DNA of 64,000 bases from assembly GCA_963818605.1 (NCBI GenBank), contig CAWFSW010000008.1:2589-66588 (forward strand). The letters are read 5' to 3'. This document shows, piece after piece, positions 1,873-12,959 of this stretch (within the stretch, counting starts at the first letter, position 1; each line of letters opens with the position of its first letter). Origin of the DNA: an uncultured Acidobacteriota bacterium (GTDB lineage: Bacteria; Acidobacteriota; Terriglobia; Acidiferrales; UBA7541). The notes beneath the pieces are model-generated. The model saw nothing but the letters and a program-made list of their open reading frames with translations, was not told the origin of the DNA and searched no databases. The position numbers were made by a program, and so were the translations under genes.

Positions 1873-2586
1873 ATGTTTGACGAACTGCTGGTTTCGGGAC
1901 CCACGGCTGATATGGCGCACACGCGCAAGCCTTGGTCGGTAGGTCTCGCCGTGATCGTTCAGTCGGCGATTCTCGGCACGATTCTACTGATACCGTTGAT
2001 CTACACGCAGACGCTGCCCAACGCGATGATCAATACGTTTCTGGTCGCGCCGCCGCCGCCCGCGCCGCCTCCTCCGCCGCAACAGGCCGTGGTAAAGCAG
2101 GTGCAGCCGAAGACTTTCGCGGTGAACCGCATGGTGGCGCCGACGATGATCCCAAAGCAGGTGGAGATCGCGAAGGATGAAGCGCCGCCGTCCGTGGCGG
2201 CGTCTGACACGGCGGGAGTGGCTGGCGGAACGGGCGATGTGCTGGGCGGAATTGGCACGGGAGTAGCGCCTCCGCCACCACCGCCGGCCGCCACACCGAA
2301 CCGCATCAAGGTCGGCGGCGACGTGGAATCTGCGTCGCTGGTGAAGCAGGTGACGCCGGATTATCCGCCTATCGCCAAGACGGCCCACGTTTCGGGTACG
2401 GTGACTTTGCACGCCATCATCTCAAAGAACGGCTCGATCGAGAAACTCGAGTACGTGTCCGGGCCGCCGCTGCTGATGGCGTCGGCGATCAGCGCAGTGA
2501 AGGAATGGAAGTACCGCCCGACGATGCTGAACGGCCAGCCGGTAGAGGTTGATACGACCGTGCAGGTGGTTTTCTCCCTGGCATAA
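1873..2586 (+). CDS. tonB: energy transducer TonB family protein
   Basis: AGGAGG at 1861-1866 precedes the ATG at 1873. N-terminal TM helix, Pro-rich linker (PPPPAPPPPP) and a TonB C-terminal domain (VTPDYPPIAKTAHVSGTVTLHAIISKNG...). Confidence 0.85.
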   Translation: MFDELLVSGPTADMAHTRKPWSVGLAVIVQSAILGTILLIPLIYTQTLPNAMINTFLVAPPPPAPPPPPQQAVVKQVQPKTFAVNRMVAPTMIPKQVEIAKDEAPPSVAASDTAGVAGGTGDVLGGIGTGVAPPPPPPAATPNRIKVGGDVESASLVKQVTPDYPPIAKTAHVSGTVTLHAIISKNGSIEKLEYVSGPPLLMASAISAVKEWKYRPTMLNGQPVEVDTTVQVVFSLA

Positions 2587-2822
2587 CAGCAAGGAGAGAA
2601 CTCAGGTGGCGCGGCGGTGATGCCATTCCGGACCATGTCAACGTATAAACGACTGGTGCCCCAGCCGCCGCGCCTGTGGGCTTTTTGATGAGAAAACTTT
2701 AATTGCCAAGATCTGGGGCGCCCGCCAATCGGTGTCCGTTTACTACCACGACAAAGTACCATCGTGCTTAACCGTTCCGTCATCCAGAGTCGTTGTGAGC
2801 CCGACTCTTGGAGGACAACGCA

Positions 2823-3566
2823 ATGAGACGCACACTGGCACTTTTCCTAGTTTCAACCTTTGCACTACCCCTATCGGCGCAACAAACGCAGACAATCCAG
2901 ATGGAATGCCGCGATATGGCCGCCAGCGGCAACTATATCGGGCCAGATGAAACAGTTATCAACGGAAGGGCTTGCCGCCAAGTTGCCGTAACCGTCAAAA
3001 CTGCGGAGCCGGTTGAAGCTGCGGCGCAACCTGAGGCAGTTCCCGCATCGGTATCGCAGCCGCCGACCGACGCGCTGGCTCCAAAAGGATTCTTGCTAGA
3101 AGACTCCACGCCTGTGCATCTCGTTATATCGGAGACCCTGTCCTCTGCAAGTGCGGTCACCGGACAAACCGTGGAGTTTGAAGTTGTGGACGACATTGTG
3201 GTGAACGGCCTGCTTGTCATTCCTCGCGGATCGACCGCATGGGCCACGGTGACGGAGGCGGAACATAAGCGTCATCTCGGCAAGCCCGGAAAGCTTGACA
3301 TCAATATCGACAAGGTACGACTTGCCGATGGCGAGAAAGCATTGCTTCGCGCGGTTAAGGACGTTCAAGGCGGCGGACACACAGGAGCGATGACCGGAGC
3401 AATAGTCGCAACTTCTCTGGTTCTGTGGCCTGCGGCACCCTTCTTCCTGCTCATGCACGGTAAGGACATCACGATCCCCAAGGGGACGCAAATTACCGCA
3501 TTTATTCAAGGTGACGTGCGGTTGGATGCGAACAAGTTCCAGAGGGAACTCGCTGTAAAGCAATGA
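2823..3566 (+). CDS. secreted or membrane-anchored hypothetical protein
   Basis: GGAGG lies 9 nt upstream of the ATG at 2823. Signal peptide MRRTLALFLVSTFALPLSAQQ, plus a hydrophobic segment near the C-terminus. No known domain recognised. Confidence 0.55.
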   Translation: MRRTLALFLVSTFALPLSAQQTQTIQMECRDMAASGNYIGPDETVINGRACRQVAVTVKTAEPVEAAAQPEAVPASVSQPPTDALAPKGFLLEDSTPVHLVISETLSSASAVTGQTVEFEVVDDIVVNGLLVIPRGSTAWATVTEAEHKRHLGKPGKLDINIDKVRLADGEKALLRAVKDVQGGGHTGAMTGAIVATSLVLWPAAPFFLLMHGKDITIPKGTQITAFIQGDVRLDANKFQRELAVKQ

Positions 3567-3605
3567 GCGATGCTCGGGTGTGGGGCCTCGCGAGGGGCTG
3601 AAGCG

Positions 3606-3727
3606 TGCCCGTGGGCTTTTCATTTCGGGGCGCGGGATGAGCGACGACGAAAAATCCCCACCCTTCGCGAAGCGAAGGATGGGGCACCCGGAAAATCAAA
3701 CACTAATGCGTGGGCCACCCGCCCGTC
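3606..3727 (+). repeat. family C repeat, long copy (about 120 nt), left boundary of the low-GC islet
   Basis: Aligns by eye at roughly 70% identity with the reverse complement of 6511-6624. The core is also shared with 1587-1630. Confidence 0.6.
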
Positions 3728-4505
3728 ATATCTTAGGGACTTTAGTTTGCGCCTCCCAAGTTGACACAATGAAGGTCGCCATAGCGCCTGCCAGGTTAAC
3801 CGCCAATTCAGCGTGACGCGGAGAGGGTTTCGGTGCCTTCTTGCCCTTGCCGTGCGCGTCGCTAAGCTTGTTCCGGAGCGCTCCGAGGCCTTCGACCACA
3901 GATTTACAGCCGCCCAGGATCTGCTTAAAAATTTGTTCTGTGTGTTGGCTAGGGCTCAAATTTAACAACTCAGCCGTTAAACCGTAGAGTTTCGGCAAGT
4001 CATTTTTCTCGTCGTAGATTACTCCACCCTCATCCAAAACGTGTTTGCAAACCGATTCAACGAGAGTTCGCGCAGCGGTGATGGCACCCTCTGGATCGAC
4101 GTTCCTGCGATCGAGCGCTTTGCGCCAAGCCTCCGCGATATGTTCCGAATCCAGCCTAGCGATAGTCTTATAGATGTTGTCGTCTGTTGGATAGTCCGCT
4201 TCCGACTCGAGGATGCTGAGGGCTGGCTCAAAGGCGTCGCGAAGGTATTTCCTTCGTCCCTCCCAGCGCGGATGAATGGGTTTGATGAAGCCCCAGATGG
4301 CATCAATATCGCGGCATGTTCGCAAGAAACTTGGAAGCTGCTCCTTGACCCGCGAGATTGCGAGCAACTCCCGCCTGAGTCGTTGATAATTTTCGTTGCT
4401 GAATTCACCGCCCGTTACTGCCGCGATCAAGCCGTTTAACAGCGCCTCCACCTTCGAAAAGAGGTCTCCCGGTTTGCCGTGTGAGGAAGCGGTAATGGGG
4501 CTCAT
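3726..4505 (-). CDS. Abi_C (abortive infection C-terminal) / HEPN-like protein
   Basis: The C-terminal segment ...VEGLGALRNKLSDAHGKGKK...AELAVNLAGAMATFIVSTW fits the Abi_C family pattern and contains R-x6-H (RNKLSDAH). Start is set at ATG 4505; an upstream TTG at 4577 is possible. Confidence 0.8.
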   Translation of the reverse strand: MSPITASSHGKPGDLFSKVEALLNGLIAAVTGGEFSNENYQRLRRELLAISRVKEQLPSFLRTCRDIDAIWGFIKPIHPRWEGRRKYLRDAFEPALSILESEADYPTDDNIYKTIARLDSEHIAEAWRKALDRRNVDPEGAITAARTLVESVCKHVLDEGGVIYDEKNDLPKLYGLTAELLNLSPSQHTEQIFKQILGGCKSVVEGLGALRNKLSDAHGKGKKAPKPSPRHAELAVNLAGAMATFIVSTWEAQTKVPKI

Positions 4506-4610
4506 CGCTTTCAGGTCAGCATAAGCGAGCCGTGGTTCGGATCGCAAGTTAGGGCCGACCCTGCTTTCATCTTGCAACCGTTTGCGCGCGCACTTGCTTA
4601 TCGCGTGGCT

Positions 4611-4976
4611 CTATTTGGGGCTGAACGCTAATCGAAATCGCGTCCGCAAATTAGGCATAGTAGGAGGATTCGTTCCAGTCTGATATGCAGGCTCAAAGGA
4701 CGGCACAAAACCAAGTTTTTCTCGGCTATAGGCTTTAATATCGTTCCGTTCCGCTTCCGCGAAACCACTCACGTTACGTATTAATTCACTCGCTCTGGTA
4801 GGGTCCTTCGAAATCATGTCTGCAATCTCTGCTACCCGATACCAATTGTTAAAACTGGCCTGTGCTTTCGCGCGTAGAGACGAGCCGGACGCGACTGAAA
4901 TGAGGAATTGAATTAAGTTCACTACGCCTAAGATAACGGAAAGCACCGCAAGAATGTCTTTTGCGTTCTTCATCAA
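4611..4976 (-). CDS. single-pass membrane protein, hypothetical (121 aa)
   Basis: N-terminal hydrophobic helix ILAVLSVILGVVNLIQFLISV, then a soluble tail. Same strand as its two neighbours with short gaps to each. Lower GC than the flanks. Confidence 0.5.
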   Translation of the reverse strand: MMKNAKDILAVLSVILGVVNLIQFLISVASGSSLRAKAQASFNNWYRVAEIADMISKDPTRASELIRNVSGFAEAERNDIKAYSREKLGFVPSFEPAYQTGTNPPTMPNLRTRFRLAFSPK

Positions 4977-5045
4977 ACACCTCGTAATATGCAGATTGGC
5001 ATATAGAACCTTGAAACCAAAATCGAACCGGTCGGACGGCTTGCT

Positions 5046-5243
5046 TCAGTTCTGCGTCGCCTCGCACGGAACGTGTGTCTCGAAAGACTCAATCGTCGCG
5101 TACAACTTGTTGCAGGAAGGGCATGAGTAGCCGCCGCCCTTAGCTGGTTTCGGAGTGACATGTGCGCCGGCATGCCCTTCTACGAGGATGCATTGACCCT
5201 GAGGGCTGGAATCTACCAACGCAGTACATTGAAACTTATCCAT
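5046..5243 (-). CDS. small zinc-finger protein with a C-x2-C-x12-H-x2-C (C2HC) motif, 65 aa
   Basis: GGGGAGG lies 8 nt upstream of the ATG. YSCPSCNKLYATIESFETHVPC has classical C2H2-like spacing. An additional Cys/His cluster sits in the N-terminal half. Confidence 0.5.
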   Translation of the reverse strand: MDKFQCTALVDSSPQGQCILVEGHAGAHVTPKPAKGGGYSCPSCNKLYATIESFETHVPCEATQN

Positions 5244-5776
5244 TGTAGTAACCTCCCCAGCGTCGTTCGCCGTCCGCTACGTCGCGCAAGGCGGCAACGC
5301 TAGGCCCTGTCTAGGCCATGGGTAAATGCCTAACGCTGCCCTGGCGCGAAACTTGCAGACCATGCGCAGGATTGTAGCAGCCCGTCGGTTGCGTGTCGCA
5401 CCTGCGGCGCTTGCCTCCCGGATGCCTGAGTTTCCTCGCCCTCACGGGCGGGGCTAACGTCTGTCGCGCCTCCGGCGCTTTACCGAAAACGGCGGGCGGT
5501 ACCAAGGCGAGGAAACGTCAACAACCCACCCTTTCCTCTCCGTAGCACCTGATCGCAACGTATTTCCGCGGCGGGTGGCTCACCCTTCAGCACTTTTGCG
5601 TTCCGCTAAATTCGTCCACCTACGAGCGGATCACACCCGCGTTACTTCGAGCCACACAGAACATTCGAGGGTGCCGCACTCTTCGTTTCCCAGAAGGGTG
5701 CGGCCTTTGCCTGTCGTCTACGTAGTTTCCACACTAGAAAGTGCGTCGAGTTTACGTCACGATAGCCCTTGACGAA

Positions 5777-5798
5777 ATTATCCCAATACTAGGATAAT
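5777..5798. promoter_or_regulatory. inverted repeat ATTATCC-N8-GGATAAT just upstream of the higB-like start; candidate operator
   Basis: Perfect 7-bp arms at 5777-5783 and 5792-5798. A TTGACG hexamer lies at 5769-5774. The -10 assignment is uncertain because GATAAT ends only 3 nt before the ATG. Confidence 0.3.
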
Positions 5799-5801
5799 TG
5801 C

Positions 5802-6188
5802 ATGGTAAGGGCGAAGCTAGCCGCGGGTGAAAAACCACTATTCTGGGTCGGTTCGGCGAAACGTGACCTGCTCGCGTTTCCTGAGCCGGTGAAAGACGAG
5901 ATCGGCGTCGCACTGAGCGTGGCACAGTTTGGCGGCAAGCACCCGAAGGCAAAACCTTGGAAGGGTGACGGGGCTGGCGTATTCGAAGTTGTGGAAGACC
6001 ACCGGGGAGATACATACCGCGCGCTCTACACGGTCCGCTTTGAAGGCGCAGTTTACGTCCTCCACGCGTTCCAGAAGAAGTCGCCGCAGGGCATCAAGAC
6101 GCGGAGAGTTGACACAGAATTAATCAGCCAGAGGCTCCGTATGGCTACGCAGGACTACGAGGTGCGATATGGCCGGGCGAAAAACTAG
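5802..6188 (+). CDS. higB: HigB/RelE-type toxin, Gp49-like (DUF891) family
   Basis: KPLFWVGSAKRDLLAFPEPV...YRALYTVRFEGAVYVLHAFQKKSPQGIKT matches the Gp49/HigB-like family pattern. Confidence 0.85.
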   Translation: MVRAKLAAGEKPLFWVGSAKRDLLAFPEPVKDEIGVALSVAQFGGKHPKAKPWKGDGAGVFEVVEDHRGDTYRALYTVRFEGAVYVLHAFQKKSPQGIKTRRVDTELISQRLRMATQDYEVRYGRAKN

Positions 6189-6507
6189 GTCGGGAATCAC
6201 GCCAAGTTCGGGCAACGTATTCACCGACCTGCGTCTGCCGAACGCGGACGAAAAGCAAACGAAGGTCCGGCTCGCAGTGGCGATCAATCAGATTATCGCC
6301 GGCCAGGAACTATCTCAGGTGGCGGCAGCGCGTCACCTGAAAATCAATCAGCCTAAGATTTCCGCGCTCGCCAATTACCGCCTGGATGGCTTTTCCGTGG
6401 AACGGCTGATGCATTTCCTCACTGCGCTTGACCGCGACGTCGAGATCGTCATTCGCCCCAAGCCCCGCTCGCGGAAAGAAGCGCGCATCCTTGTAAGCGC
6501 CGCGTAG
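6169..6507 (+). CDS. higA: XRE-family HTH antitoxin (HigA-like, HTH_37 type)
   Basis: Overlaps the toxin gene by 20 nt. NVFTDLRLPNADEKQTKVRLAVAINQII...LSQVAAARHLKINQPKISALANYRLDGFSVERLMHFL is the typical partner of Gp49-like toxins. Confidence 0.85.
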   Translation: MAGRKTRSGITPSSGNVFTDLRLPNADEKQTKVRLAVAINQIIAGQELSQVAAARHLKINQPKISALANYRLDGFSVERLMHFLTALDRDVEIVIRPKPRSRKEARILVSAA

Positions 6508-6510
6508 TTT

Positions 6511-6624
6511 CGCGCCAGGTGGTCCAGGCTTTGGCTCTTGATTTTCCGGTTGCCCCATTCTTTGCGCAGCAAAGGGCGGAGATTTTCCCTCGCCCCCACC
6601 CCTCATCAAAAAGTCCACAGGCGC
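6511..6624 (-). repeat. family C repeat, long copy in inverted orientation, right boundary of the low-GC islet
   Basis: Starts 4 nt after the higA stop. Its reverse complement aligns with 3606-3727. Confidence 0.6.
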
Positions 6625-6874
6625 CGCTTGACAATTTCGAGTCTCTCTCCTGCTAGCGTGAGTCTGGGCACTATTGCGCCCACGAGGAACCGAGATGGAC
6701 GCATTGACTCCCGCCGGTCGGCGGGGCATCAGCGCAGAAAAGCCGGCCACCGCTCGAACGCGAAGAGCGAGAAGCAGTCGGCTCTTCTGCGGCATACCGC
6801 TCTCGCTTCCTCCCGATGTCAGGGTCGACAGGAGCCACCACAAGCTAACCCACTGGCCGTCGTTTTTGGCGCCA

Positions 6875-6958
6875 AATTACTCGACACACGTGCCGAGTAA
6901 TTTTCGCCGTAGCTCACACAAAACAAAAGAAAGGGGCACATGCCAAGTGACACACAAT
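6875..6958 (+). repeat. family E repeat with an 11-bp-arm palindrome (TTACTCGACAC AC GTGCCGAGTAA)
   Basis: A near-identical ~75-nt copy lies at 56179-56257 in the same orientation. It shares the tail AAAACAAA(A)GAAAGGGGCACA. Confidence 0.65.
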
Positions 6959-7149
6959 TGGGGGTGTGTGCGCCCCCATATTTCATGGGGGACGAGCGGT
7001 CAATTTGACCGTTCGGCGTTCGTTCACGGCGAGCACAATCGGCTGCGTCGGGGCCGCGATGTGGTTCCAAGTACCAAACCTCGCTTCCCGCCCGCCAAAA
7101 TGACTACAATTGCGCGTCAGAGGAAAACGATCGTCGAGGAGCCCTGCGT

Positions 7150-7791
7150 ATGAACCCGAACAACAACGATGAACTGATGCCCACCGTGCAAGATCTGCTC
7201 GCCCGCGTGCGTCACCTGGAAGACACGCTCGAGATCCAGCAGCTGCAATCGAAATATATTCATCTCCTCTTCAAGCAGCGCTTCGACCGCATCGTAGACG
7301 AGTGCTTCGCGCACAATCTGCCCGACGTGTCCGTCGAGTTCTCCGATAGCGGCGTGTACCGCGGCTTGGAAAGCGTTCGCGCGCTTTACAAATCTTTCGA
7401 TGTGACGAAAACGATTCCGGGATTTTTCATCCTTCACATGGCCGCCAATCCGGTGGTCGAGATCGCCACCGACGGATTATCCGCGCGAAGTCACTGGCTG
7501 TCCCCCGGCGCTGCCGGCAGCATTTCGTCAGCCGCATGGATCTGGGGAACTTTTTACGTTGATTACGTGAAGGAAGATGGCCGCTGGAGGATCGCTCATT
7601 CCAACCTTGTGCCCGTGTTCCGGAACCGATACGAAACGAGCTGGACGCAGGCCCCCGATCACGGCACGGTGCGCGGCGTGCTTGCGGCCCAGCCGGACGA
7701 GCCTTCCACTCTCTACAAGCCCTACAACGAAGCCAAAAAGCAGCCGGACATGTTCGCCGGACATCCGCCGCTTCCGCAGCCGGAGCGCTAA
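7150..7791 (+). CDS. SnoaL-like / NTF2-superfamily protein
   Basis: 213-aa ORF. The pattern [14 protein letters not shown]...[13 protein letters not shown] is typical of the SnoaL_4/NTF2-like fold. Assignment is from memory. Confidence 0.65.
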
Positions 7792-7852
7792 TCACTCGAA
7801 CACGAAGATGCGCGCGAGGTCATTTCCGCAGTATGCTTTGGATGTATCTCAA

Positions 7853-9283
7853 ATGCGGAGGCACAGCGTGGACGGCAAAGCGTCGCCTGCATCAAAAGCG
7901 GGCGCACGGATTGAATCCGACAGCATGGGCAAGATCGAGGTGCCCAACGATCGCTACTACGGCGCGCAGACCGCGCGGTCGCTGATCCATTTCGATATCG
8001 GCACGGACAAAATGCCGCCCGAGCTGATTCGCGCGTTCGGAATCCTGAAAAAGGCCGCGGCGCTGGTCAATCAGGACCTCGGCAAACTTTCCGCCGAAAA
8101 AGCGAAACTGATCGTGCAGGCCGCCGACGAAGTGATCGCCGGAACGCTCGACGCGCATTTCCCGCTGCGCATTTGGCAGACCGGGAGCGGCACGCAGACC
8201 AACATGAACGCGAACGAGGTGATCTCGAATCGCGCCATCGAACTTTCCGGCGGCGTGATGGGCAGCAAGAAGCCGATTCATCCGAACGACGACGTCAATA
8301 TGTCGCAGTCGTCGAACGACACGTTTCCCACGGCGATGCATATCGCCGCGGCGTCGCGCGTGGCCGAGGCGCTGATTCCCGCCGTCGAACGGCTGCGCGA
8401 CGCACTCAACGCGAAAGCGCGCGCGTTTGGCGATGTGGTCAAAATCGGCCGCACGCACCTGATGGACGCGACGCCGCTCACCGTCGCGCAGGAGATGTCC
8501 GGCTGGTCGAGCCTGCTCGATCGCGACATTGCGCGGCTGAAGGAAGTGCTGCCCGGCCTCTACGACCTGGCGATTGGCGGAACGGCGGTCGGCACGGGTT
8601 TGAATTCGCCGCCGGAATTCGCCGAGCGCGCTGCGAAGAAGATCGCGGAGCTGACGGGGCTGCCGTTCAAATCTCATCCGAATAAATTCGCGGCGCTTTC
8701 CGCGCACGACGAAATCGTGTTCGCCAGCGGCGCGTTGAAGACTCTGGCCGCTTCGCTGATGAAGATTGCAAATGATGTGCGCTGGCTCGGCTCCGGCCCG
8801 CGCGCCGGACTCGGCGAGTTGATGCTGCCGGAAAACGAGCCGGGTTCGTCCATCATGCCCGGGAAAGTGAATCCCACGCAGTCCGAGGCCATGACCATGG
8901 TTGCCGTGCAGGTGATGGGCAACGACGCGGCCATCGGCTTCGCCGGCTCGCAGGGAAATTTCGAGCTGAACGTCTTCAAGCCGGTGATCATCCACAATTT
9001 CCTGAACTCAGTTCGGCTGCTCACCGATGCGTGCCGCTCGTTCACCGACCACTGCGTGCAGGGAATGGAACTCGATCGCCAGCGCATCGAACAGTACGTG
9101 AAGAATTCGCTGATGCTCGTCACCGCGCTGAACCCGAAAATCGGCTACGACAAAGCCGCGGAGATCGCCAAAAAGGCCCATCACGAAAAACTCAGCCTGC
9201 GCGACGCCGCGTTGAAGCTCGGCTACCTGACCGAAAAGGAATTCGACGAGCTGATTCGCCCCGAGAAAATGACGCGCCCGTAA
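7853..9283 (+). CDS. fumC: class II fumarate hydratase
   Basis: [25 protein letters not shown]..., [16 protein letters not shown] signature, full length. The start could also be ATG 7808. Confidence 0.95.
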
Positions 9284-9418
9284 GGTGAGTTTTTCCGGGC
9301 GAACGTCGCGGCTGGTTCACAGCGGCACACATTTCAGTCGCGCACGTGCCATTATGAAACATTTTCCGCCACGTTTCTCATTTTTGGAAATTGTGAACTT
9401 TCCCATGAGAAGTTCTTT

Positions 9419-9488: not shown

Positions 9489-10184
9489 ATGCGTATCCTT
9501 GTCGCCGAAAGCGACTTGTCGCTCAGTGGTTTTCTGGATCGAGAATTCCGCGCCGAGAATTATGCCGTCGATCTGGCGACGGACGCGGTCCAAGTGAAGT
9601 CGCTTGCGCGCGACCGTCATTACGACGCCGCCATTCTGGACCTCCATCTCGGTCACCACGATGGCCTCGAACTTCTGAGGAGCGTGCGCGCTGCGCACGA
9701 GCAACTTCCCATTCTGGTTCTGGCTAGCCCCGGCAACGCTGAGGATCGAGTGCAGGTCCTCGATCTGGGCGCGGATGATCTCGTCTTCAAACCGTTCGCG
9801 TTCGCGGAGCTTTCCGCGCGGGTGCGCGCGGTGCTGCGCCGCGGCGGACACTATGCGGAAACGGTGTTGCGCGTCGAGGATCTGGAGCTGAGCCGCATCG
9901 AGCGCTCGGTGAAGCGCGCTGGACGGAAGATCAAGCTCACGCCGAAGGAATTCGCTCTGCTCGAGTACCTGATGCGCAACTCCGGGCAGCGCGTGACGCG
10001 GACAGAAATCATTCAGCACGTCTGGAATATTCCCTTCGACACGATGACGAATGTGGTGGACGTGTACATCAACTACTTGCGCAAGAAAGTGGACGCGCCG
10101 TGCGAGCACAAGTTGATTCACACGGTGCGGGGCGTCGGGTACCGGCTGCAGGCGCACAACCCGCGCGACGGCCGCGCGGCTTGA
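9489..10184 (+). CDS. OmpR/PhoB-family response regulator (REC plus winged helix)
   Basis: MRILVAESD...AAILDLHL...FKPF receiver, and a C-terminal LTPKEFALLEYLMRN...VDVYINYLRKKVD...TVRGVGYRL. Confidence 0.9.
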   Translation: MRILVAESDLSLSGFLDREFRAENYAVDLATDAVQVKSLARDRHYDAAILDLHLGHHDGLELLRSVRAAHEQLPILVLASPGNAEDRVQVLDLGADDLVFKPFAFAELSARVRAVLRRGGHYAETVLRVEDLELSRIERSVKRAGRKIKLTPKEFALLEYLMRNSGQRVTRTEIIQHVWNIPFDTMTNVVDVYINYLRKKVDAPCEHKLIHTVRGVGYRLQAHNPRDGRAA

Positions 10185-10215
10185 ATCGGTGAAGGAGCAA
10201 TTCAGGGGGCCAAAT

Positions 10216-11016
10216 ATGTCAGCGGGAACAGCAGCGTTGGCGAAGCAAGTGGATGCGGCGGAGCGCGAGAGGCTTCTGCTCGAGCATCTTCCGCAAGTGC
10301 AATACGTCGCACGGCGCATTCACGGCCGGCTGCCGCAGCAGGTGCTGCTGGAGGACCTCGTTCACGCGGGAATTCTGGGCCTGATGGATGCGGTGAAGAA
10401 ATACGATCCGAGCAAGAACGTTCAGCTGAAGCACTACGCGGAATTCCGGATACGCGGCGCGATTCTCGACAGCCTGCGGCTCGTGGATTGGAGTCCGCGA
10501 GCGCTGCGACGGCAGGCGCGGCGCATGGAGCAGGCAATCAATCAGTGCAAGGCGCGGCTCGGGCGCGATCCGAACGAGACAGAGATTGCGGAAGAGATGC
10601 AGGTAAGCCTCGGAAGTCTGCAGCGGCTGCAGGGAGATTTGCGCGGTCTCGATATAGGAAGTTTGCAAGCGGATGCGGACGAACCCGGTGACCGGGAAAT
10701 GTCGCAAACGCAGGCCGAGGCGACGGAAGAGGACCCTTACCATCAGGCGCTGCGCGCGGAGACGAAGGAACTGCTCGAAAAAGCAATCGGCGAGCTTCCG
10801 GGAAGGGAACGCGAGGTGCTTGCGCTGTACCACTTCCAGGAACTGACGATGAAGCAGGTCGGCGCGATGATGCGCATCGGCGAATCGCGCGTGTCGCAGA
10901 TTCACACGTCGGCGTTGCTGCGGCTGCGCGAGCGGCTGGCGGGGACGCTCTCGGTGCGTCCGCCGCTAATGCACGCGTCGCGTGAGGCCACAACCTTGGC
11001 GCGGGTGCGGGTTTGA
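10216..11016 (+). CDS. FliA/WhiG-family (group 3) RNA polymerase sigma factor
   Basis: DLVHAGILGLMDAVKKYDPSKNVQLKHYAEFRIRGAILDSLR (region 2) and ELTMKQVGAMMRIGESRVSQIHTSALLRLR (region 4.2). AGGGGG lies upstream of the ATG at 10216. Confidence 0.85.
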   Translation: MSAGTAALAKQVDAAERERLLLEHLPQVQYVARRIHGRLPQQVLLEDLVHAGILGLMDAVKKYDPSKNVQLKHYAEFRIRGAILDSLRLVDWSPRALRRQARRMEQAINQCKARLGRDPNETEIAEEMQVSLGSLQRLQGDLRGLDIGSLQADADEPGDREMSQTQAEATEEDPYHQALRAETKELLEKAIGELPGREREVLALYHFQELTMKQVGAMMRIGESRVSQIHTSALLRLRERLAGTLSVRPPLMHASREATTLARVRV

Positions 11017-12959
11017 TGGTTACGAAAGCGATTCACGCGACTGAACGCGACCGGCTCATGGCGAAGGAGCAGACGCGCCATCTCAGCGAGACCAAGGATT
11101 CGGGCGCGAAGTATCGCGGATTATTGGAAGCCGCTCCCGACGCGATGGTGGTGGTGGACGAGAGCGGGGAAATCGTACTTCTCAACGTGCAGGCAGAGAA
11201 ACAGTTCGGGTACCGCCGCGATGAACTTGTCGGGCAGAAAGTGACGAACATTATTCCGAAAGGCTTCGCGGAGAGGTTGATCGCGGACGGCACGCGAACC
11301 ACGGCCGAAGCTCTGGCACAGCAAATCGGCACAGGGATCGAACTTTCCGGACGACGGAACGACGGAAGTGAGTTTCCGATCGAGATCATGCTGAGTCCGC
11401 TGGAAAGCGCCGAAGGAATCCTGGTGACGGCGGCGATTCGGAACATCAGCGTGCGGAAGGCGGCGGAAAAGCATTTGGCGCAGATGGAAGGAAGATATCG
11501 CGGGCTCCTGGAAGCCGCTCCGGACGCAATGGTGGTGGTGAATCAGGGCGGGGAGATCGTTCTTCTAAACGTGCAGGCGGAAAAGCAGTTCGGATATCGG
11601 CGCGACGAGCTCGTGGGGCAGAAGGTCACGAATATTATTCCGGTAGGTTTCGCGGAGCGGCTGGTCGCGGACGGACTTCGGACGGCTGCAGACGCGCTGG
11701 CGCAGCAGATCGGCACGGGAATTGAACTCACGGCGCGGCGCAAGGATGGAAGCGAGTTTCCCATCGAGATCATGCTGAGCCCGCTGGAGAGCGCCGAGGG
11801 AATTCTGGTAACGGCGGCGATCCGCGACATCAGCGTACGCAAGGATGCAGAAAAGCATCTGGCGCAAATGGAAAGCAGGTATCGCGGGCTGCTGGAGGCG
11901 GCTCCGGACGCGATGGTGGTAGTGAACCGGCGCGGAGAAATCGTGCTCCTGAACGTTCAAGCGGAGAAACAGTTCGGATACCACCGCGACGAACTCGTCG
12001 GGCAAAAGATGAAGAACATCATTCCGGAGGGATTTGCGGAGCGGCTGATCTCGGATGGTCTGCGATCGCCGGAAGACGCGCTGGCGCAGCAGATCGGTAC
12101 AGGAATCGAGCTGTATGGAAAGCGGAAGGATGGAAGCGAGTTCCCAATCGAGCTCATGCTGAGCCCGCTGGAAAGCGCCGAGGGAATTCTGGTGACGGCG
12201 GCAATTCGCGATATTAGCGTGCGCAAAACGGCCGAAACTCATCTTCTGAACAAAGTCGAGGAATTGAAACGCTCCAACGAGGAACTGGGACAATTCGCTT
12301 ACATTGCCTCGCACGACTTGCAGGAGCCGCTGCGGATGGTGGCCAGCTACACGCAGCTTTTGTCGAGACGATACAAGGGCAAGCTGGACTCCGATGCGGA
12401 TGAGTTCATCGCGTTCGCCGTGGACGGAGCCAACCGCATGCAGCGGTTGATTCAGGATCTGCTGGCCTTTTCGCGCGTGGGGACAAAGGGAACAGAGCTG
12501 CTGGATTACTCAAGTGAAGAGGCGCTCCAGCAGGCGCTGATAAACCTACGCGCGACGATCGCTGATAGCGGGGCGCAGGTGACGCACGACCCCCTTCCCA
12601 ACGTTCTGGCGGACGAGATGCAGCTAATTCAACTGTTTCAGAATCTCGTGGGCAACGCCATCAAGTACCAAGGCCCCGGGGTGCCTCACATACATGTCTC
12701 CGCCGCAAGAAACGTTGAGAAAAAATGGATATTCTCGGTGAAAGACAGTGGCTTGGGGATTGACTCGCAGTACTTCGAAAAAATCTTTGGCATGTTTCAG
12801 CGGCTGCACAAGCGAGACGAGTTCGCTGGAACGGGAATCGGTCTGGCGATCTGCAAGAAGATTGTCGAGCGGCACGGCGGCAGCATTTCCGTCGAGTCAC
12901 AACCCACGCAGGGTTCGACATTTCGATTTACCCTGGACGGAATAGAGAGGAAATCATGA
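11016..12959 (+). CDS. sensor histidine kinase with three tandem PAS domains (HisKA plus HATPase_c)
   Basis: The ATG overlaps the sigma stop (TGATG). Three 128-aa PAS units, an H-box FAYIASHDLQEPLRMV, and G-boxes DSGLGI / GTGIGLAICK. Confidence 0.9.
   Translation: MVTKAIHATERDRLMAKEQTRHLSETKDSGAKYRGLLEAAPDAMVVVDESGEIVLLNVQAEKQFGYRRDELVGQKVTNIIPKGFAERLIADGTRTTAEALAQQIGTGIELSGRRNDGSEFPIEIMLSPLESAEGILVTAAIRNISVRKAAEKHLAQMEGRYRGLLEAAPDAMVVVNQGGEIVLLNVQAEKQFGYRRDELVGQKVTNIIPVGFAERLVADGLRTAADALAQQIGTGIELTARRKDGSEFPIEIMLSPLESAEGILVTAAIRDISVRKDAEKHLAQMESRYRGLLEAAPDAMVVVNRRGEIVLLNVQAEKQFGYHRDELVGQKMKNIIPEGFAERLISDGLRSPEDALAQQIGTGIELYGKRKDGSEFPIELMLSPLESAEGILVTAAIRDISVRKTAETHLLNKVEELKRSNEELGQFAYIASHDLQEPLRMVASYTQLLSRRYKGKLDSDADEFIAFAVDGANRMQRLIQDLLAFSRVGTKGTELLDYSSEEALQQALINLRATIADSGAQVTHDPLPNVLADEMQLIQLFQNLVGNAIKYQGPGVPHIHVSAARNVEKKWIFSVKDSGLGIDSQYFEKIFGMFQRLHKRDEFAGTGIGLAICKKIVERHGGSISVESQPTQGSTFRFTLDGIERKS
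11112..12263 (+). repeat. three tandem 384-bp repeats inside the kinase gene, each encoding one PAS unit
   Basis: The YRGLLEAAPDAMVVV codons recur at 11112, 11496 and 11880. The units are near-identical at protein level. Confidence 0.85.

Follow-up and report, generated by a model that had tools for sequence, protein, structure and literature searches.

An uncultured acidobacterium probably carries a self-contained AbiJ/SadR-type abortive-infection gene next to unrelated mobile cargo in a low-GC islet

The stretch of 64,000 nucleotides analyzed here (hereafter the window), taken from contig CAWFSW010000008.1 of the uncultured Acidobacteriota assembly GCA_963818605.1, contains at positions 3726-5243 three consecutive genes, designated A, B and C in the 5' to 3' direction of the minus strand, which encode a small cysteine- and histidine-containing protein, a membrane protein and a protein ending in an Abi_C-type HEPN domain, respectively. 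An earlier note on this DNA regarded them as a single, uncharacterized three-gene abortive-infection system. Our analysis favors another explanation, in which C is probably a self-contained single-gene abortive-infection protein of the AbiJ/SadR type, with A and B representing unrelated accessory cargo placed head to tail with it by chance. This explanation is built on domain identities, invariance of the catalytic-type motif, independent distribution of the three genes, a mosaic of homology blocks, replacement of the slot content in a related genome and the mobile contexts in which A and B are found. The region would thus constitute a small accessory islet of low GC content on the chromosome of an acidobacterium, and its three genes would have independent histories.

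Gene A (5046-5243, minus strand) encodes 65 amino acids and is preceded by a GGGGAGG Shine-Dalgarno sequence located 8 nt upstream. Gene B (4611-4973, minus strand), having a GAGGTG Shine-Dalgarno sequence, encodes 120 amino acids from ATG 4973 or 121 amino acids if translation begins at the alternative TTG 4976 (4611-4976). Gene C (3726-4505, minus strand) encodes 259 amino acids from ATG 4505, with TTG 4577 as an alternative start yielding a 283-amino-acid form (3726-4577); ATG 4505 is favored because of the alignment of homologues and the pattern of upstream conservation. The intergenic gap between A and B amounts to 69 nt and that between B and C to 33 or 105 nt, depending on the start of C. 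The G+C content of the three-gene region is 52.1% and that of gene B 46.8%, as compared to a window mean of 59.5% (standard deviation 2.2%, 1518-nt windows), and the region has the lowest value among all 1518-nt windows of the 64 kb. Ratios of nonsynonymous to synonymous substitution rates (dN/dS) against relatives are 0.16-0.18 for A, 0.12-0.14 for B and 0.05-0.10 for C, and hence all three are real genes, as all three are under purifying selection. The earlier note described the individual parts correctly: the open reading frames (ORFs) lie exactly where it placed them, with the spacing and the low GC that it reported, and its assignment of an Abi_C domain with an R-x6-H motif to the last gene, of a C-x2-C-x12-H-x2-C motif to a 65-amino-acid first gene and of an N-terminal anchor without any recognizable domain to the middle gene all agree with the results described below.

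On the basis of its sequence, C is a bona fide Abi_C/HEPN protein with a catalytic-type motif. In a hidden Markov model search, the Pfam Abi_C profile (PF14355) matched C with 87.6 bits (cut-off 24; E 5.8e-25) over profile positions 1-82 of 83, covering residues 195-271 of the 283-amino-acid form and establishing membership in this family. The R-x6-H spacing is found in the sequence LRNKLSDAHG (core RNKLSDAH), which conforms to the HEPN catalytic-type motif R-(polar)-x3-6-H, and residues R211, N212, D216, A217 and H218 are invariant in an alignment of 26 sequences from diverse homologues sharing 54-80% identity. The PADLOC AbiJ model (PDLC02347) matched residues 134-273 with an E value of 9e-22 at profile positions 137-276 of 281, that is, in the HEPN half only, and PHROG 23253 matches C over its full length (2.3e-68). 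The first 135 residues are conserved and are helical with good confidence in the AlphaFold2 (AF2) model, and no Pfam family could be assigned to this N-terminal region even at E <= 10. A profile search of PDB sequences with C returned nothing.

The three genes are distributed separately. A total of 140 loci (1.17 Mb) surrounding relatives of A, B or C, cited below by L numbers, were searched by tblastn with all three proteins, which detected C in 122 loci, B in 14 and A in 6. Wherever any two of the genes were found together, the locus was L006, a 2.2-kb contig whose sequence is identical to the window. Neither A nor B accompanies C in any of the 121 other C loci, and A and B are not found together in the 5 other A loci or the 13 other B loci. 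At the DNA level, homology breaks into blocks that end at gene borders, each of which matches different loci: the C block (3749-4559) matches L005, L019 and L001, the B block (4611-4984) matches L007, the A block (5056-5256) matches L010 and L012, and farther along the higBA block (5712-6516) and the fumC block (7806-9222) both match L019.

One of these loci, L019, derived from a Candidatus Acidiferrales metagenome-assembled genome, is syntenic with the window (L019 1-5800 versus window 3700-9300) and shares with it FumC with an amino-acid identity of 62% (83% for the DNA), HigB at 80%, HigA at 87% and C at 81%. In L019, a gene for Shedu SduA is located between higBA and C in place of A and B, the higBA pair is inverted and the 213-amino-acid ORF present in the window at 7150-7791 is missing. 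These differences mark a recombination-prone defence slot. As L019 retains C and higBA without A and B, it follows that C and higBA are the longer-standing residents, and that A and B fill the variable slot.

The flanks of C also point to an independent unit. The homology block shared with L005 and L019 (3749-4559) extends beyond the start codon and stops at the end of an upstream segment (4506-4559, minus strand) that moves with C, such that the 54 nt located 5' of ATG 4505 are conserved with these two loci despite differing upstream genes. Within this segment, a promoter-like sequence TTGCGA-N18-TATGCT ends 12 nt before the ATG, and we infer that it is C's own promoter, producing a near-leaderless transcript. 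Directly 3' of the C stop codon, a terminator-like G+C-rich hairpin followed by a T-run is located at 3645-3719 (minus strand), and the terminator scan identified a 13-pair stem at 3684-3656 after C. Hence, C would be transcribed from its own promoter with the transcript ending at its own terminator hairpin.

The hairpin after C is also one copy of an element resembling repetitive extragenic palindromes (REP-like), three copies of which, each a G+C hairpin followed by a T-run, are present in the first 7 kb (1587-1626, 3645-3719 and 6518-6592). The copies located directly after the stop codons of C and higA are mutually inverted, and they resemble either common intrinsic terminators or a small dispersed element. 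The possibility that the inverted 75-nt repeats 3645-3719 and 6518-6592 constitute the ends of a mobile element carrying the three genes together with higBA was considered and rejected as unproven, because the hairpins are positioned after stop codons, a third copy is present at 1587-1626 and the L019 homology blocks end elsewhere.

Several observations weigh against the reading of C as a stand-alone HEPN abortive-infection protein with A and B as cargo. The common strand, short gaps and shared low GC of A, B and C make read-through co-transcription possible in this genome, and the terminator scan revealed a weak terminator-like site after A and none after B. The N-terminal region of C has no match, among Pfam models, to any described AbiJ N-terminal domain. 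The AF2 model of C is all-helical with a predicted local distance difference test (pLDDT) score of 78, but its confidence is low at residues 188-219, which include the motif. When this model was compared with the PDB using Foldseek, the best-probability matches were HEPN domains (3o10, 0.85; 1wol, 0.63) with E values of about 0.9-1.8, and none was obtained at E <= 0.001, so that the HEPN fold is only weakly supported by structure. The RNase activity, the trigger and the anti-phage phenotype of the C subfamily are those predicted from its relatives. Finally, the samples are small, comprising 3 distinct contexts for A and about 8 for B.

Proteins related to C are abundant, with more than 6000 at E <= 0.001, and they are encoded in at least 484 stretches of a species-representative genome collection, these being from Acidobacteriota, Pseudomonadota, Planctomycetota, Verrucomicrobiota, Cyanobacteria, Campylobacter, Chloroflexota, Bacteroidota and Actinomycetota, in addition to 203 plasmid records and 34 viral contigs. 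The C subfamily itself consists of proteins of about 250 amino acids with 52-60% identity across phyla. The neighbours of the nearest relatives of C (77-81% identity) are MarR or Shedu SduA, and neither A nor B. When ORFs located within 2.5 kb of C homologues were clustered using genome and metagenome C loci, no universal partner was found, and type I restriction-modification (R-M) genes, confirmed by Pfam, were the sole recurrent neighbours. Annotated plasmid copies are found either beside a pair of R-M genes (helicase and methyltransferase) or in a defence island whose other members include PIN, PLD, DUF4435 and ABC-three-component genes, and the plasmid records label these C homologues as 'abortive infection family protein'.

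Given these properties, C is best placed within the known Abi_C/AbiJ/SadR kind. Like AbiJ (Abi-859 of Lactococcus lactis pND859; Anantharaman et al. 2013, PMC3710099), it consists of one polypeptide whose C-terminal part is an Abi_C HEPN domain with an R-polar-x-H motif, and it shares with the AbiJ/Abi_C family the occurrence as a solo gene, both within R-M operons and in defence islands. It differs from AbiJ sensu stricto in that only the HEPN half of C aligns, without full-length similarity, and in its acidobacterial host. HEPN domains of the AbiJ type are predicted RNases, whose solo genes are often found inside R-M operons, and for the N-terminal domains of AbiJ proteins a sensor or antitoxin role has been proposed, in which they detect phage components and restrain the toxin (PMC3710099). 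What is known of lactococcal AbiJ is limited to its phenotype and to mutations in phage single-stranded DNA-annealing proteins that permit escape (PMC13064643). A further precedent is SadR, an Abi_C RNase of Staphylococcus aureus that degrades RNA and blocks phages and plasmids on its own, and whose R, N and H mutants lose both the RNase activity and defence (Nat Commun 2026, PMC13590631). In a motif-level comparison, RNKLSDAH of C and RNEYGDAH of SadR share the same R-N-x5-H spacing. The largest Abi_C class defined in that study, comprising 2257 of 2815 proteins, has 'no recognised N-terminal domain' (PMC13590631), and C fits this class; however, it comes from a different phylum, and the activities measured for SadR are predicted for C.

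By analogy with this family, the C-terminal HEPN domain of C would dimerize and form an RNase site from R211, N212 and H218, and the helical N-terminal region would hold the RNase silent until a phage cue is sensed. Cleavage of RNA by C might then arrest the infected cell. A and B would be mobile-element cargo in the variable slot between higBA and C and would not be required partners of C.

Turning to the cargo, A combines the motif C41-x2-C44-x12-H57-x2-C60 with a second set C6/C18/H24/H28. All eight of these Cys and His residues are invariant in 5 intact homologues, with 37 of the 65 columns invariant overall (P=0.008). A resembles a classical C2H2/C2HC finger in its C-x2-C-x12-H-x2-C spacing, and differs from classical C2H2 fingers in that the last ligand is Cys and a second invariant C/C/H/H set lies upstream. 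Pfam C2H2 models matched it with E values of 0.003-0.25 and 12.8-16.7 bits, under their cut-offs of 22.6-27, so that A does not qualify as a member of the classical C2H2 profiles; sub-threshold matches included zf-C2H2_jaz, zf-C2H2_4 and zf-C2H2_6 (E 0.009-0.13). The AF2 prediction from a 6-sequence alignment had a pLDDT of 49, too poor to judge a beta-beta-alpha fold. A is a putative small zinc-binding protein. It has no PADLOC match, and its family is very small, with 5 other cluster representatives in 5.8 billion, 4 of them intact. In L012, a relative of A is located in an island adjoining the transfer-messenger RNA (tmRNA) gene and a tyrosine integrase gene, just 5' of a truncated PDC-S33-like gene, and in L010 its surroundings comprise IS110 and DDE_3 transposases, and the gene that follows it encodes an unrelated membrane protein. 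The gene downstream in L012 (5572-5967) is a 131-amino-acid ORF that overlaps the end of the A homologue and matches only the first 75 of the 349 positions in PADLOC candidate PDC-S33, which suggests that a larger defence gene has been truncated here.

B has one strong hydrophobic segment (residues 7-25; Kyte-Doolittle 19-residue maximum 2.64) followed by a conserved soluble part, and has no match in Pfam, NCBIfam, PHROGs or PADLOC. Its family, with 19 close homologues and 67 representatives of the same architecture at 50% clustering, comprises single-pass N-terminally anchored membrane proteins of about 120-170 amino acids with the motif AYSRE(K/H)LxFxP, and a metagenome scan added only 4 extra loci. 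In L008 (3879-6380), a complete IS1595-family element of about 2.5 kb carries a B relative as a passenger. The terminal inverted repeats of this element are perfect over 24 bp and its target duplication TTAGAAAT measures 8 bp. The element encodes the transposase and three small passenger ORFs, the B-family protein being among them; its inverted repeat, when searched in the window, gave no match. B relatives are also found directly 3' of an IS1595 transposase gene in L015-17. Both A and B are therefore interpreted as accessory mobile-DNA cargo with changing neighbours. Pfam and PADLOC scans of the genes beside A and B relatives returned mostly nothing, and the small ORFs neighbouring these relatives have no similarity to one another or to A, B or C. 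In two IS1595 contexts, L008 (5846-5977) and L015 (2136-2345), a short lysine-rich ORF with the motif GPKP...K(I/V)(D/E)GDWR.AV....KKPA.GW.K adjoins the B homologue, being upstream of it in one context and downstream in the other.

These contexts also allow an alternative explanation, according to which B, with or without A, is an unrecognized defence-island gene, acting solo or paired modularly with a downstream nuclease or ATPase effector. Members of the B family would then either act at the membrane on their own, as exclusion or abortive-infection factors, or serve as portable membrane partners encoded upstream of varied effectors. In 3 of the approximately 8 distinct B contexts, known defence genes indeed occur within one or two genes, namely Abi_C 105 nt downstream in the window, in L007 an OLD/AriA/GajA-like ATPase encoded on the same strand 187 nt downstream, and in L103 AbiU/AIPR together with a type II R-M system adjoining B. 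Moreover, A and B fill the slot that is held by Shedu in L019. However, the neighbours differ each time, and elsewhere B relatives lie in IS1595 elements or near unknown or ordinary genes, as in L099 and L101, where they are surrounded by unknown genes. Accessory hotspots collect defence genes and unrelated cargo alike, B lacks any domain, PADLOC or PHROG match, scans of viral contigs yielded no relatives of B or of A, and the sample is very small. A defence function of B is unlikely. If it were true, B might spread as IS1595 cargo, and A and B would not be helpers of C but would themselves constitute a new defence cargo.

The recurrent association of the C family with type I R-M genes suggests another alternative, namely that C is a PrrC-like back-up of restriction, held latent in an R-M complex and released when a phage inhibits restriction, and that the copy in the window is an orphan. 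In a survey of 80 genome loci using one query each for HsdM, HsdS and HsdR, type I R-M genes were found within 5 kb of the C homologue in 13 loci, typically in the order hsdM-hsdS-C-hsdR. Examples of C homologues embedded in R-M operons include L021, L024, L025, L028 and L030 (about 2000-9000 in each). In the EcoprrI locus, prrC occupies the same position between hsdS and hsdR. C thus shares with the anticodon nucleases PrrC and RloC the placement of an HEPN-type RNase gene between hsdS and hsdR in these R-M-bearing loci, in line with the occurrence of solo AbiJ genes in R-M operons (PMC3710099). In contrast to PrrC and RloC, C lacks an N-terminal ABC-type ATPase domain, and most members of its family are not linked to R-M systems, with no tested defence gene nearby in 66 of the 80 loci. 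No relatives of hsdM, hsdS or hsdR were found anywhere in the 64-kb window, and C is here a solo gene, as the window has no R-M system. This orphan gene is nevertheless intact and under strong purifying selection. Taken together, we see little likelihood that C serves as such a back-up.

The proposal of the earlier note, in which A as a zinc-finger sensor or regulator, B as a membrane component and C as an HEPN effector constitute one novel three-gene abortive-infection system, has become very improbable. It draws on the common strand, the short gaps and low GC, on the conservation of all three as coding genes, and on the fact that no PADLOC system combines a finger, a membrane protein and Abi_C. 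The last point stands as far as PADLOC is concerned, where only C has a match, but the composition is missing there for the reason that it is a one-off juxtaposition: in the 140 loci, the three genes co-occur nowhere beyond the window's own copy, an outcome that the note itself had set as a refutation, and they belong to separate homology blocks. Furthermore, C has its own conserved promoter region, its family of thousands has no conserved partner, L019 carries C without A and B, and Abi_C proteins are known to act alone, as exemplified by SadR (PMC13590631). As a kind, C is not uncharacterized either, given the existing 'abortive infection family protein' annotation of the C family, the PADLOC AbiJ match and the SadR precedent. 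What survives of the proposal is the setting, since the toxin-antitoxin (TA) pair that the note mentioned is an adjacent HigBA and Shedu occupies the same slot in L019, consistent with a small islet of defence genes and mobile DNA.

Least credible of all is the notion that C is the toxin of a TA pair whose antitoxin is an upstream RNA (type III, as in AbiV and AbiF) or the protein B or A: HEPN proteins are often TA toxins, AbiV belongs to the type III TA systems (PMC13064643), B and A are located just upstream of C, and C resembles HEPN-MNT and type III systems in having an HEPN RNase as the growth-arresting component, but it has no MNT-type partner, repeat-RNA antitoxin or conserved neighbour, none of the other C loci contains A or B, no tandem repeats were found in 3400-6700, and the folding of the B-C spacer is no stronger than that of shuffled sequence (z = 0.77), leaving no structured leader 5' of C.

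Beyond the three genes, the plus strand carries the genes for a HigB-like toxin (5802-6188; Pfam Gp49, 4e-20, 72 bits) and a HigA-like antitoxin (6169-6507; Pfam HTH_37, 4e-27, 94 bits). They overlap by 20 nt, and the order of a Gp49/RelE-fold toxin gene followed by an overlapping helix-turn-helix antitoxin gene identifies the pair as HigBA-type. The 558-nt spacer between A and higB contains an Acido-Lenti-1 RNA motif (5434-5479, plus strand; Rfam RF01687, 48.4 bits versus a gathering score of 37), which neighbours these genes, is the sole Rfam match in the 64 kb and was not found in 13 related loci. Farther downstream, an ORF at 11013-12959 encodes a 648-amino-acid protein with repeated PAS-like modules, within which a 384-nt tandem repeat is present in 2.9 copies (80% identical; 11125-12244, plus strand). 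It is located 3' of a response-regulator gene (9489-10184) and a 275-amino-acid ORF (10189-11016), and the PAS-repeat protein is probably a multi-PAS sensor kinase.

As to the meaning of these findings, a false lead is removed, as the A-B-C triad should neither enter catalogues of defence systems nor be cloned as a unit. The region illustrates in a concrete case how, in Acidobacteriota, higBA and an Abi_C gene can enclose a variable defence slot, and a small membrane-protein family has been identified whose members travel in IS1595 elements and are also encountered next to defence genes. At the same time, the C subfamily, being very widespread, having a conserved unclassified N-terminal region and often residing in type I R-M operons, may serve as a simple target for studying how solo Abi_C proteins are triggered.

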